Positions 5,785-27,783 of a DNA stretch of 64,000 nt are shown here, piece after piece (within the stretch, counting starts at the first letter, position 1; every line of letters starts with the position of its first letter). The notes below the pieces were generated by a model. That model was given only the letters and a program-made list of their open reading frames with translations, made no database searches and was not told the origin of the DNA. The stretch is from an uncultured delta proteobacterium (GTDB taxonomy: Bacteria; Myxococcota_A; Polyangia; Polyangiales; Polyangiaceae): the NCBI GenBank assembly GCA_963782055.1, contig CAWAIF010000003.1:960001-1024000 (forward strand). Direction: 5' to 3'. The position numbers and the translations under genes were made by a program.

Positions 5785-6297
5785 TCACCTGGTTGCAGTG
5801 ACCGGTACGCCGGCGTCCGCGCTGCCCAGGCGCACCAGCGGCCGCAGCTTGTGCAGTGTGCGGCGGCCGATGCCGCGTACGCGCAGCAGATCCTCGATCT
5901 GCCGGAAGTGACCGAGCCTCCGCCGCAGCGAGAGGATGGCGAGCGCGCGCTTCGGGCCGATGCCGGGGAGGCGGCGCAGGTCGTCCGTCGTGGCTTCGTT
6001 GAGGTAGACGGGATCGTCCGGTGTGGCGCGCGCGGAGTGCGAGCGCGGGGCGGCGGCGTCGGGACCGGCCGCCGGCTCCACGTCCGCCGGGGGGGCCGCG
6101 GCGAGCGCGGACGGCGCGGGGGGAAGCGGCTCGGGGACCGCCGCGGCCGCCGGGGGGACCTGCCCCCCGACGACCACGAAGCGGCCCACGACCGCCAGGA
6201 GAAGGAGGCCCGCGGCTGACAGCAGCACGCGTGACGCAGGCCTCCACCACCGCGAGACGACGAAGCGCCGCGCGGTGGCCCTGACCGTGGTGAGCAC
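5785..6297 (-). CDS. comEA: ComEA-family helix-hairpin-helix DNA-binding protein
   Basis: N-terminal hydrophobic segment, Pro/Ala linker, VYLNEATTDDLRRLPGIGPKRALAIL...FRQIEDLLRVRGIGRRTL. Start placed at GTG 6297 just after the upstream stop (uncertain). Confidence 0.88.
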   Translation of the reverse strand: MLTTVRATARRFVVSRWWRPASRVLLSAAGLLLLAVVGRFVVVGGQVPPAAAAVPEPLPPAPSALAAAPPADVEPAAGPDAAAPRSHSARATPDDPVYLNEATTDDLRRLPGIGPKRALAILSLRRRLGHFRQIEDLLRVRGIGRRTLHKLRPLVRLGSADAGVPVTATR

Positions 6298-6305
6298 GGC
6301 GACCC

Positions 6306-6575
6306 TCAGGCCTCCGCCGGCTGCTGCGGCAGACGAGGCGGACGCGCCTCCGCCGGCAGGCGGGGCGGGCGCACCGCCATCAGGTTGTTGGCGCCGCGGT
6401 TCTCGCCGGGCGGCTCCCACTCGCGAACCTGGAGCATCCCGTTGGTGGGGATGGCCTCCAGGCGCAGGTTGATGGACCCGTCCTGGTTGACGGAGCCGAA
6501 GCCCACCCGCGTCCAGTACGACTTGCCGTTGCGCTCCGTGACCGTGAACACCGTCTTCAGTTGCCGACCTTCCAT
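6306..6575 (-). CDS. Small hypothetical protein (89 aa), first gene of the comEA operon
   Basis: MEGRQLKTVFTVTERNGKSYWTRVGFGSVNQDGSINLRLEAIPTNGMLQVREWE...; GAGGAAG RBS upstream; beta-strand pattern. Confidence 0.85.
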   Translation of the reverse strand: MEGRQLKTVFTVTERNGKSYWTRVGFGSVNQDGSINLRLEAIPTNGMLQVREWEPPGENRGANNLMAVRPPRLPAEARPPRLPQQPAEA

Positions 6576-6636
6576 GACTTCCTCACTTGTTTGTCCGAGA
6601 GCGCCCGCCTCCCTGGCGGTGCGCGAGAGGGTGTAG

Positions 6637-6652
6637 AGCGAGACGCGTGCCA
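6637..6652 (-). promoter_or_regulatory. sigma54 -24/-12 promoter
   Basis: Minus strand TGGCACGCGTCTCGCT (GG-N10-GC). Confidence 0.8.
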
Positions 6653-6696
6653 CGCACGCCACGGCGGAAATCCGCGCCGAACGCGTGAGCGGCCCC

Positions 6697-6729
6697 TGTC
6701 CCCGGACAGATCGCGGGTGTCCCCGGACA
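6697..6729. promoter_or_regulatory. Paired palindromes, putative enhancer-binding-protein sites
   Basis: TGTCCCCGGACA at 6697-6708 and 6718-6729 (21-bp period). Confidence 0.75.
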
Positions 6730-6766
6730 CCCCGGCCGTCGTCCGGGCGCGGTCCCGATGAGCTCG

Positions 6767-24981: not shown

Positions 24982-24999
24982 CGGCGCGGTCCCGCGGGG

Positions 25000-25033
25000 T
25001 GTCCCCGGGACAGGTCGAAACTGTCCCCGGACA
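25000..25033. promoter_or_regulatory. Paired palindromes, putative enhancer-binding-protein sites
   Basis: TGTCCCCGGGACA (25000-25012) and TGTCCCCGGACA (25022-25033). Confidence 0.75.
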
Positions 25034-25076
25034 CCCCGCGTCGCGCCGCCACCGCGGAAAACGCCTGACTTCGCGC

Positions 25077-25092
25077 CGGCACGCGCCTCGCA
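25077..25092 (+). promoter_or_regulatory. sigma54 -24/-12 promoter of comM-recA
   Basis: CGGCACGCGCCTCGCA (GG-N10-GC). Confidence 0.78.
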
Positions 25093-25105
25093 ATGAGGGT
25101 CGGTC

Positions 25106-26653
25106 ATGCTGGCCACCGCCCTCAGCGCAAGTCTCCTCGGTCTGGATGCGTCGCCCGTTCGGGTGGAGGTCCAGGCGATGCGAGGCGTCCCCTCCTTCGA
25201 GATCGTCGGCCTCGCCGAGGCGTCGGTCCGCGAGAGCCGCGTGCGCGTCAAGAGCGCGCTCGCCGTGCTCGGGGTGGACCTGTCGGAGTACCGCATCATC
25301 GTCAACCTAGCGCCGGCGGACGTGCGCAAGTTCGGGACGGGGTTCGACGTCGCCATCGCCGCCGCCACCCTCGCCGCGCTGCGCGTCGTCCCGCTGGAGT
25401 CGCTGGAGGGGCTGCTGCTCCTGGGTGAGCTCGCGCTCGGCGGCAGCGTCCACACCGTGCGCGGCGTGCTCCCCAAGCTGCTCGGCGCGCGCAAGCGCGG
25501 CCTGCGCCGGGCCGTCGTGCCGGAGGGCAACCAGGCAGAGGGCGCGCTCGTCACCGGTCTGGACGTGCGCACCATGGGCTCGCTGGCCAATCTGCTCGGC
25601 GCCCTCCGCGGTGAGCACGCGCTCCCCCGGGCGATCCCCGGGCCGGAGCCGGAGGAGGCGCTCGCCGGCCTGGCGGACCTGGCGGACGTGCGCGGTCAGG
25701 CCTCCGCCCGTCGCGCGCTGGAGGTGTGCGCCGCCGGCGGCCACAACCTGCTGATGATCGGCCCGCCCGGCGCCGGCAAGACGATGCTCGCGCGCCGGCT
25801 GCCCAGCCTCCTGCCGCTCCTCTCCCCTGCGGAGTCGCTGGAGGTCACGGCCATCCACAGCGTGGCGGGCGCGCTCATGCAGACGCAGACGCTCCATCGG
25901 CTGCGCCCCTTCCGCGCGCCGCACCACACGGTGAGCGAGGTGGGGCTCGTCGGCGGGGGAGACTCGCCGCGCCCGGGGGAGGTGAGCCTCGCCCACCACG
26001 GCGTCCTCTTCCTGGACGAGCTGCCGGAGTTCCGGCGCGCGGCGCTGGAGTCGCTGCGCCAGCCGCTGGAGGACGGGACGGTCACCGTCTCGCGCGCGCT
26101 CGGCCGCGCCACCTTCCCCGCCCGGCCGATGGTCGTCGCCGCGATGAACCCGTGCCCGTGCGGTTACCTGGCGGACGGCACCGGCCGCTGCGGCTGCCCG
26201 CCGGAGCGCGTGCGCATGTACCGCTCGCGCCTGAGCGGCCCGCTGCTGGATCGCATCGACGTCCACGTCGCGCTGCCGCCGGTCTCGGTCTCGGCCCTGC
26301 AGCACCAGACCCACGGCGAGTGCTCCGCCGTGGTGCGCGCCCGGGTGGAGCGCGCGAGGGAGGCGCAGAGCGACCGCGCTCGCCGCAAGGAGGCGAGCGG
26401 GTGGCTCAACTCCGCCCTCTCCCCGCACGACGTGGAGAAGCTCGCGGCCCTCTGTCCACACGGAGAGCGGCTGCTCTCCGCGGCGGTGCAGCGCCTCGGC
26501 CTGTCCGCCCGGGCGTACGGCAAGGTGCTGCGCGTCGCGCGCACCATCGCCGACCTGGACGGCAAGGAGGCGCTCGGCCCGGAGCACGTGGCGGAGGCGA
26601 TCTCCCTGCGCGTGCTGGACCGCCACGCCCACCCCGGAGTGCGGGCCGCATGA
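25106..26653 (+). CDS. comM: YifB/ComM family Mg-chelatase-like AAA ATPase
   Basis: [67 protein letters not shown]. Confidence 0.95.
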
Positions 26654-26751
26654 GGCGCGGTCGCAAGTCCGGCGCCGGACCGAAGGATCAGCGCGGCGCG
26701 CCCCGAGCCGCGCACCACTCTCGCGGGGCATTGCACACCAAGGAGAAGGTC

Positions 26752-27783
26752 ATGTTGGAGCAGATCGCGGACAAGATGCGTGTTCTCAAGAGCGTCATCC
26801 ACAGCGTGGAGAAGCAGTTCGGCAAGGGGTCGATCATGGCCCTGGGCGACGACGCCGACCCCGAGCCGGTGGCCACCATCAGCAGCGGCTCGCTGGCGCT
26901 GGACCTGGCCACCGGCGTGGGCGGCTACCCGCGCGGGCGCGTCGTGGAGATCTACGGCCCGGAGTCGAGCGGCAAGACCACCCTCGCGCTGCACGCCATC
27001 GCCCAGGCGCAGCGCAACGGCGGGGTGTGCGCCTTCATGGACGCCGAGCACGCGCTCGACCTCGCCTACGCGCGCGGCATCGGCGTGGAGACGGACAAGC
27101 TCCTGGTGTCGCAGCCGGACACCGGGGAGCAGGCCCTGGAGATCGTGGAGATGCTCATCCGCTCCGGCGCCATCGACCTGGTCGTCGTCGACTCCGTCGC
27201 CGCCCTCACCCCGAAGGCGGAGCTGGAGGGCGACATGGGCGACGCCCACATGGGCCTGCAGGCCCGGCTGATGAGCCAGGCCCTGCGCAAGCTCACCGCG
27301 GTCTCGCACCGCACCGGGACGACCATCCTCTTCCTCAACCAGCTCCGGCAGAAGATCGGCGTCACCTTCGGCAACCCGGAGACCACCACCGGCGGCAACG
27401 CGCTCAAGTTCTACGCCTCCATGCGCCTGGACGTCCGGCGCATCGGCCAGATCAAGATCGGCGACGAGATCGTCGGCGGCCGGACGCGCGTCAAGATCGC
27501 GAAGAACAAGTGCGCTCCTCCCTTCACCGAGGCGGAGTTCGAGATCCGCTACGGGACCGGCGTCGACCCGATGAGTGAGCTCATCGACCTGGGCCTCGCC
27601 CGCGGGCTGGTCGACAAGAGCGGCAGCCACCTGCACTTCGCCGGCGCGGCCCTCGGCAACGGGCGAGAGCGCGCCCGCGAGACGCTCTTCCAGACGCTGG
27701 ACCTGCAGCAGACCCTTCGCCAGGCGATCCTGGCGTCCGGCCCGGTCAAGCCGGGCCGCAGGACGATGGAGGCGGCCGCCTAG
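26752..27783 (+). CDS. recA: Recombinase RecA (divergent C-terminus)
   Basis: [56 protein letters not shown]. Confidence 0.97.

Follow-up and report, generated by a model that had tools for sequence, protein, structure and literature searches.

What controls the genes for DNA uptake and recombination in myxobacteria? The question is raised by a stretch of 64,000 nt from an uncultured member of the Polyangiaceae (assembly GCA_963782055.1, contig CAWAIF010000003.1, positions 960,001 to 1,024,000; here called the window), in which two operons about 18 kb apart, one carrying comEA and the other comM and recA, share one promoter architecture. Competence control in this group appears unsettled, and our literature search found no regulator. 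The original prediction placed both operons under sigma54 and a dedicated enhancer-binding protein, as part of a natural-transformation programme. We find that the regulatory feature is real, conserved and wider than first reported. Its promoter architecture and its set of target genes can be seen directly in the DNA, and together they probably mark out a conserved regulon of the Polyangiales myxobacteria that depends on sigma54 and serves DNA uptake and recombination, with competence as its probable role.

Each window promoter is made of two interrupted palindromes, which are putative upstream activator sites, followed by a GG-N10-GC box (Table 1). The two palindrome pairs first described were recovered in full, with a spacing of 21 and 22 bp, and the gap between box and inner palindrome is, as described, 44 bp on the left and 43 bp on the right. 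TGTCC-N2/3-GGACA matches four times in the window, a number reached by none of 100 shuffles (mean 0.11, maximum 2). Both boxes have GG at -24 and GC at -12 across a 10-bp spacer. The palindromes are most frequent 77 and 55 nt ahead of the box start, corresponding to about -103 and -81 relative to the predicted transcription start; they thus form a paired dyad of conserved position, within the range of roughly 70-150 bp before the start. Between activator sites and box, at -20 to -10 from the latter, the A+T fraction rises to about 0.5 in each of the four promoter sets, compared with 0.2-0.35 where the activator sites lie. The comM mRNA is predicted to be nearly leaderless, its start codon falling at the predicted transcription start, because the first start codon lies 27-29 nt from the box start in most comM promoters (an ATG or GTG at box+27 to box+29 in 25 of the 30 tabulated comM loci with box and palindrome).

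Family profiles bear out the names comEA, comM and recA. The left operon does not begin with comEA, as had been thought: its first gene is a small open reading frame that we denote P0002, with comEA second, an order also seen at the best-hit locus of 23 of the 25 genomes that have a match. The comEA-like frame (5785-6420, minus strand) scores 55.7 bits against PF12836 (HHH_3; cut-off 27) and 51.2 bits against TIGR00426, just below the cut-off of 53.1; its start is uncertain, with in-frame GTG codons at 6420, 6297 and 6228. The genome has two recA genes, 58% identical to each other. Among relatives, 38 of 57 comM loci include recA, and in one genome (G009) ssb follows comM-recA.

The motif is indeed present at both operons, and it is not confined to them. 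In the genome to which the window belongs (G000; 7.58 Mb, 72% GC, with contigs C2 and C3; other G and L labels denote further genomes and loci), TGTCC-N2-GGACA occurs 69 times, against about 4.8 copies expected per spacer length and 2-13 copies genome-wide for each control spacer within 0-8, and most of the clusters have a GG-N10-GC box on one side. Genes were called with a purpose-made codon-bias caller, by which some starts are misplaced, and were counted as members when a strict box and at least 2 half-sites lay upstream. The counts rest on this rule and not on a position weight matrix scan, which tells true sites apart only at scores higher than about 25 (81 upstream versus 27 downstream controls) and is noisy below. 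By this definition 73 of 6,422 called genes have the full promoter, 50 of them MarR-like paralogues and 23 others. Frequent occurrence upstream of unrelated genes had been named as a sign against the idea; in form this is partly the case, with the qualification that the 50 MarR-like promoters are copies of one promoter-carrying cassette and not independent sites.

The 23 other members include comEC, comM, P0002, radC and the genome's only ssb, together with six Uma2 nucleases, three IS91-family transposases, an HEPN protein, a trypsin-like protein and several unknowns, some of them probably chance matches. Of the further sites that had been predicted, those at comEC, radC and ssb exist, and those at dprA, comF and pilA do not; three of the five competence loci that lay outside motif discovery (comEC, radC, ssb, dprA and comF) are therefore among the 23. 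One control element is shared by comEA, comEC, comM, radC, ssb and recA. No box with half-sites was seen at lexA, the other recA, recN, ruvB, radA, mfd, two uvrD-like genes or uvrA; the repair and pilus genes were chosen by short motifs, and family search confirmed only part of them, and uvrB, recG, recO, recR, dnaE2 and mutS fall outside this check, their motif patterns having matched nothing. Of 29 promoters scanned for a LexA-like box (GTTCAG-type), that of the other recA was the only one to have it. We could thus rule out that the palindrome is itself a LexA box, as the SOS genes lack the palindrome and the LexA-like box occurs only at the other recA. At pilA there is a sigma54 box beside a PilR-like gene, with a different upstream sequence lacking TGTCC/GGACA. 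The minor-pilin/PilY1-like operon of the window (37014-44200, minus strand) has a possible sigma54 box, CGGTATACACTTTGC, and none of these activator sites.

Table 1. Positions of promoter elements, genes and arrays. Plain numbers are window positions; C3 denotes a contig of G000.
Feature	Position	Strand	Remarks
Distal upstream activator site, left promoter (TGTCC-N2-GGACA)	6718..6729	.	about 77 nt 5' of box start, the commonest position in relatives
Proximal upstream activator site, left promoter	6697..6708	.	about 56 nt 5' of box start, conserved position
Short A/T patch between left activator sites and box	6667..6671	-	possible bending element
Sigma54-type -24/-12 box, left (GG-N10-GC), TGGCACGCGTCTCGCT	6637..6652	-	predicted start near 6626
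P0002, 89-aa open reading frame, first gene of left operon	6306..6575	-	no known family; candidate new competence factor
comEA-like gene	5785..6297	-	hydrophobic N-terminal segment, Pro/Ala linker, helix-hairpin-helix domain
Distal upstream activator site, right promoter (TGTCC-N3-GGACA)	25000..25012	.	sequence match
Proximal upstream activator site, right promoter	25022..25033	.	sequence match
Sigma54-type -24/-12 box, right, CGGCACGCGCCTCGCA	25077..25092	+	predicted start near 25103
comM (YifB/ComM AAA+ helicase)	25106..26653	+	TIGR00368 531.7 bits, cut-off 362.4; also Pfam
recA, second of the genome, 3' of comM	26752..27783	+	TIGR02012 above cut-off; without LexA-type box
Candidate activator, single-copy FHA-AAA+-helix-turn-helix enhancer-binding protein	C3:5727967-5729235	-	PF00498, PF00158 above cut-off
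Five tandem Uma2 nuclease genes and HEPN gene (L040)	C3:6896789-6911305		each with own promoter copy
Sixth Uma2 gene	C3:1711916		own promoter copy
IS91-type repeat arrays	C3:4409731-4490000; also C3:5.17-5.27, 2.72-2.74, 5.97 and 6.16-6.20 Mb		

The same architecture is kept in relatives. Database labels of the homologous loci are mostly Polyangiaceae, Polyangiales or Myxococcales, and loci with enough upstream sequence (leaving out 1 comM, 4 comEC, 2 P0002, 1 ssb and 2 dprA loci with short flanks) were scored with a lineage-neutral pattern of box plus near-palindrome. This pattern precedes comM at 31 of 55 loci, comEC at 23 of 55 and P0002, the head of the comEA operon, at 62 of 95, compared with 3/29 for ssb, 0/28 for dprA and 557 of 6,423 for all own genes (a 9% background). 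The box alone is found at 46/55, 39/55 and 84/95 loci, respectively (background 1,928/6,423; search window 300 nt for comEC and 190 for the others). Near-palindromes occur in 79 of 162 promoters at fixed positions, where shuffles give a mean of 17 and a maximum of 24. These counts show conservation and are not independent trials; they agree with the expectation that orthologous loci would keep the motif, as comM, comEC and the comEA operon do so across the order. The housekeeping ssb of relatives mostly has TTGAC and no box, and a second ssb copy in G028 carries the full promoter. Beyond the order, arrays and boxes precede both comM and comEC in G047 and G054, and comM in G125; neither array nor box was found at comM and comEC of G046, G052 and G053.

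The half-site itself drifts between lineages: it is TGTCC in G000, G007 and G042, TGGCC in G001-G006, G050 and G105, TGACC at L372 and L381, and TGGCG in most outer lineages. This drift provides a handle for finding the activator. As had been expected, the enhancer-binding protein is not encoded in the window: the sigma54 activators of G000, over 40 in number, all lie outside it. Reciprocal best hits against G012, G017 and G032 yield seven activators common to all four genomes plus a fast-evolving FHA protein (Table 1). The recognition helix of the seven is identical or nearly so in five, differs conservatively in the PilR-like one and is unreadable in G000 in the last. Core activators of the REC type were accordingly rejected as readers of the sites, their helices being invariant across half-site variants; PilR was rejected because the sequence upstream of pilA differs and the helix of the PilR-like protein hardly varies from lineage to lineage. 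The MarR-like protein was rejected as a general binder because just 10 of 44 genomes gave a match and many with the regulon gave none.

Most relatives, genomes of 2.7-3.4 Mb among them, encode one clear orthologue of the FHA protein, and its upstream neighbour is shared in 22 of 43 loci. The helix-turn-helix of the protein is related to those of ZraR and of the RegA type, and the G[AS]FTGA motif is kept in 42/42 orthologues, so that the host, which has an rpoN-like gene at C3:2800824 (by an RpoN-box motif), possesses both RpoN and a GAFTGA-bearing activator. FHA, AAA+ and helix-turn-helix parts are all present; the conserved FHA residues are not all in place, with Ser in 40/42, His in 41/42, NG in 38/42 and the G-R arginine in only 2/42. 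This arginine binds phosphothreonine, and its absence in 40/42 makes simple kinase sensing doubtful. The G007 copy of the activator gene is preceded by an array and a box of its own. An IS66 element in G000 (C3:5729374-5730723; apparent 8-bp target duplication; 14 copies share its N-terminus) lies 138 bp 5' of the gene, where G007 has this self-promoter; the insertion may have altered expression of the activator gene.

The residue that follows R in the PR[ST][ST]xR helix of this protein varies in step with the fifth base of the half-site: Lys or Arg goes with C in 20 of 22 genomes and Asp or Glu with G in 16 of 17, small residues being divided between C (4) and G (6). Dropped before this count were the housekeeping ssb loci and 18 loci whose box looked misplaced or duplicated; 4 of 53 genomes were unclassifiable (too few or tied sites), and the tree leaves out 12 non-orthologous or truncated best hits. 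Lys and Arg commonly read guanine and Asp cytosine, and the pairing fits these rules. A prediction made in advance for 16 C-type genomes was borne out by all seven new clear orthologues (7/7 K or R), the others being one duplicate of G042, one doubtful orthologue with Ala and seven genomes where none was found. For 15 G-type genomes two clear orthologues have D and three have E or G, which are non-basic and not the residues named; three doubtful ones have D, S or A, one is a duplicate of G140, and in four none was found. Within the K clade, G110 has Ser together with G-type half-sites at comM (5/5), a third event outside the count. With 2-3 independent changes, the covariation is suggestive and not statistically established. 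We nevertheless think it fairly probable that the FHA protein is the activator and that this residue reads the fifth base pair.

Several mobile genes carry the promoter. The MarR-like cassette is present at 58 loci in G000 (for example L039, C3:1345895-1346491) and, without a transposase, combines the activator sites with a further palindrome specific to the subfamily, a sigma54 box and a single MarR-like reading frame; the shared sequence runs from the first TGTCC through the stop codon. It is under purifying selection (nonsynonymous against synonymous differences, pN/pS 0.169/0.399, 41 copies), 38 of the 58 copies face a convergent gene, and six congeners have 5-16 matches each. Its half-site is that of the host, TGGCC in G001-G006 and TGTCC in G156 and G159 (30 of 63 matches examined), and the cassette therefore appears to follow the regulon rather than to create it. 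The IS91-family transposase (PF04986 and PF14319) is followed by arrays of end-like repeats between diverse cargo genes; the two repeat halves of about 50 bp have 46 and 47 matches, and two-gene recombinase/IS91 elements adjoin some repeats. Among close metagenomic homologues, 18/18 (16 distinct upstream sequences) have a near-palindrome in the expected zone, 5' of a -24-like GG[CT]A[CT]; these 18 were picked by eye as the closest group among 64 scored loci, against a palindrome-test background of 24%. Their -12 element is often degenerate, and many homologues that are more distant carry a sigma54 box but not this array. One distant clade (L049-type: L571, L574, L577, L582 and L590) shows near-consensus sigma54 boxes with other upstream sequences, and sigma54 control of IS91-type transposases may be general. 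Six Uma2 genes have the promoter (Table 1), and five other Uma2-like genes, picked by motif, do not.

Sigma54 promoters stay closed until an upstream-bound AAA+ enhancer-binding protein remodels the holoenzyme. On this established biology, the promoters before P0002-comEA, comEC, comM-recA(-ssb), radC and ssb, with their two interrupted palindromes, A/T patch and -24/-12 box, would remain silent until the activator acts. Some signal would release the FHA protein, which would then bind both palindromes, loop over the A/T patch and open these promoters. ComEA and ComEC would import single-stranded DNA, SSB and the dedicated RecA would load onto it, and ComM and RadC would help its integration. 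Pili and DprA would be supplied from other promoters, and imported DNA would be integrated by a RecA separate from that of the SOS response. Judged by gene content, it is quite likely that activation switches on competence. The IS91 clade, the MarR-like cassette and the Uma2 nucleases stand on the promoter in its host form and would be switched on together with it; that these mobile genes carry the promoter is observed, and its purpose there is our suggestion.

Some of the results weigh against this picture, both as to what the regulon is for and as to what reads its sites. In G000 the site is missing at dprA, comF, pilA, pilB/T and the window minor-pilin operon, and none of the 28 dprA promoters in relatives has box and palindrome, so that part of the uptake pathway lies outside the regulon. 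Other members, namely the trypsin-like protein, the HEPN protein and unknown exported proteins, have no known link to competence, and because kin genomes are not independent all of the counts across genomes are inflated. M. xanthus RecA1, a possible counterpart of the window recA, is described as rising after mitomycin C (PMC12288472). It is possible to see here a LexA-independent regulon for DNA damage or recombination repair under sigma54, with which the uptake genes merely ride along and transformation is incidental. Such a regulon would suit members such as recA, ssb, radC, the XPB helicase with DUF790 and the nucleases, the position of dprA and comF outside, and the description of M. xanthus recA1 as LexA-independent with late induction by ultraviolet light (PMC7029660). 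We find it rather improbable, given that comEA and comEC have no repair role, that recN, ruvB, radA, mfd, uvrA, the uvrD-like genes and lexA lack the site, and that comEA, comEC, comM and radC make up the competence set reported to be silenced by RocRp in Legionella (PMC12378983). The two readings overlap, as damage could be the inducing signal of a competence regulon.

As to the reader of the sites, two related genomes (L332 and L338) have K with G-type sites, contrary to prediction; a tree built without the helix-turn-helix shows just two changes of the trait (p about 0.5, sign test); and the T/G/A difference at base 3 is unexplained by the recognition helix. G047, which belongs to another class and has TGTCC arrays, showed no orthologue among its 27 activator loci, one of them cut by a contig end. 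Outside Polyangiales, activators were enumerated in full in G047 and G115 and elsewhere among at most 150 candidates per genome, within which this query found no orthologue in G125, G150, G054, L336, L368, L377, L398, L391 and G022. A convincing self-promoter array is present at 1 of 41 orthologue loci. In G130, a reduced Polyangiales-family genome (1.8 Mb, one contig), the FHA gene carries two frameshifts, with 4/6 activators intact, dprA is interrupted by internal stop codons, and neither comM nor comEC was found; this is a decaying genome, and the co-loss is therefore weak evidence. The regulon could be real and its palindromes read by another activator, a repressor or a nucleoid protein, the FHA covariation then reflecting shared ancestry. 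The few independent changes, the two exceptions and the G047 promoter without an orthologue would fit this, and we hold it to be unlikely without being negligible: no other activator common to the four compared genomes varies in step with the site, the MarR-like protein is limited to 10/44 genomes, the upstream sequence of pilA, the PilR-like target, differs, and the residue-base chemistry follows the recognition rules. That the motif is a dispersed repeat or a cassette terminus which landed before comEA and comM by chance is largely refuted and very improbable; most G000 copies do belong to one multi-copy cassette, but throughout the order, also in genomes without a cassette match, three separate orthologous loci keep the promoter in position, and the cassette takes the host's half-site variant.

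The preferred reading, a sigma54 competence regulon under the FHA activator, can be compared with known systems. Characterized competence regulators include RocR/RocRp in Legionella, TfoX-Sxy with CRP and also QstR in Vibrio and Haemophilus, ComK in Bacillus and ComX in Streptococcus, and dprA, comF and uptake-pilus genes are usual, not universal, members of such regulons. The target set described here overlaps with those of Legionella, Vibrio, Haemophilus, Bacillus and Streptococcus; unlike these, it stands behind a sigma54 promoter with activator sites instead of CRP-S, a sigma70-type factor or a small RNA, leaves dprA, comF and pilins outside, contains a second, dedicated recA, and has an operator that drifts between lineages. 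In Legionella, RocRp targets are reported to comprise comEA, comEC, comM and radC, and ssb and recA to act in transformation (PMC12378983).

PilS/PilR with RpoN controls the type IV pilin in Pseudomonas, Myxococcus and Acinetobacter, and thereby affects transformation through pilin expression. That system is alike in that a sigma54 activator influences transformation, and a PilR-like gene and a sigma54 box are found at pilA here too; it differs in that the present regulon would act directly on uptake and recombination genes, and the site that a PilR regulon should have at pilA is absent. FHA-domain enhancer-binding proteins are a known family in M. xanthus, with the same FHA, sigma54 AAA+ and Fis-type helix-turn-helix order, whereas the G-R arginine is absent here in 40/42; our literature search found no described member controlling competence genes. 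PexR of M. xanthus is an enhancer-binding protein acting on tandem CACCG-n6-CGGTG upstream of the katB sigma54 promoter (PMC12754779). Its regulon, as reported there, resembles ours in the tandem interrupted palindromes 5' of a validated sigma54 promoter and in conservation across myxobacteria, and differs in the site, in a GAF rather than an FHA input and in peroxide rather than DNA-uptake targets. M. xanthus RecA1 is described as having no LexA box and as the RecA that recombines electroporated DNA (PMC7029660); by this description it resembles our second recA, which also lacks a LexA box and is putatively tied to the recombination of incoming DNA, and RecA1 is described as lying outside an operon, versus the position behind comM in 38/57 loci here. 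Natural transformation of M. xanthus is reported to be inefficient (PMC11610982). The transposase and end-like arrays resemble IS91/ISCR rolling-circle elements with miniature-end arrays, the difference being that the transposase here has the host's competence-type upstream sites. A search of titles and abstract starts found no coupling of an IS91 transposase to a competence-type promoter.

The earlier statement that no description of this circuit was known held up in a full-text literature search (titles and abstract starts, few subscription journals), and as far as this search goes a sigma54 promoter of this predicted kind has not been described before for DNA uptake and recombination genes. 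The analysis yields a concrete promoter with a list of its targets, P0002 as a new conserved small protein, and a named activator candidate. If correct, sigma54 enhancer control would be a further way to run a competence regulon, and the activator and its operator would be a natural case of co-evolution between one residue and one base pair. Mobile elements would respond to the competence signal of their host, where the more usual description is of such elements disrupting or silencing competence genes (PMC12378983). A bolder proposal, which on balance we hold only tentatively, is that these bacteria, the Sorangium/Polyangium group, have a hidden, switchable competence run by one sigma54 activator whose readable DNA code co-evolved with all of its targets, with IS91-type single-stranded-DNA transposases, their cassette arrays and the 58-copy MarR-like cassette wired in so that gene capture and element spread take place exactly during entry of foreign single-stranded DNA; a de-repressed activator would then give transformable Polyangiales. 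This would open a route to transforming these natural-product producers, which are hard to manipulate.

P0002 has no match in Pfam, NCBIfam or the atlas families; with its homologues it forms a large family without a name (2,306 clusters at E<=0.001). A confident model predicts a small four-stranded beta protein, for which Foldseek gives no match at E<=0.001 and the best comparison with the PDB is weak (Z 3.7, root-mean-square deviation 3.5 over 53 residues); its conserved Trp, Arg and Lys suggest nucleic-acid binding. An XPB-like helicase and DUF790 pair (L042, C3:2434107-2436699) has an activator-site array with an irregular box and is a possible new competence-associated DNA-processing pair. 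Two full promoters, at C3:6428614(-) and C3:1338803(-), have no called reading frame nearby and may belong to regulon small RNAs or small proteins; they were two of three loci at which Rfam gave no match. On viral contigs the double palindrome occurs at 9 loci, none with a sigma54 box, and L538, L540, L543 and L544 carry dense TGTCC-N2-GGACA repeats in a context resembling phage replication-initiator origins; these look like phage origin iterons and are taken as unrelated. Directly 5' of the ssb promoter array, at C3:1343500-1344280, lie tandem GC-rich units of about 46 bp, with similar sequence near C2:354520.

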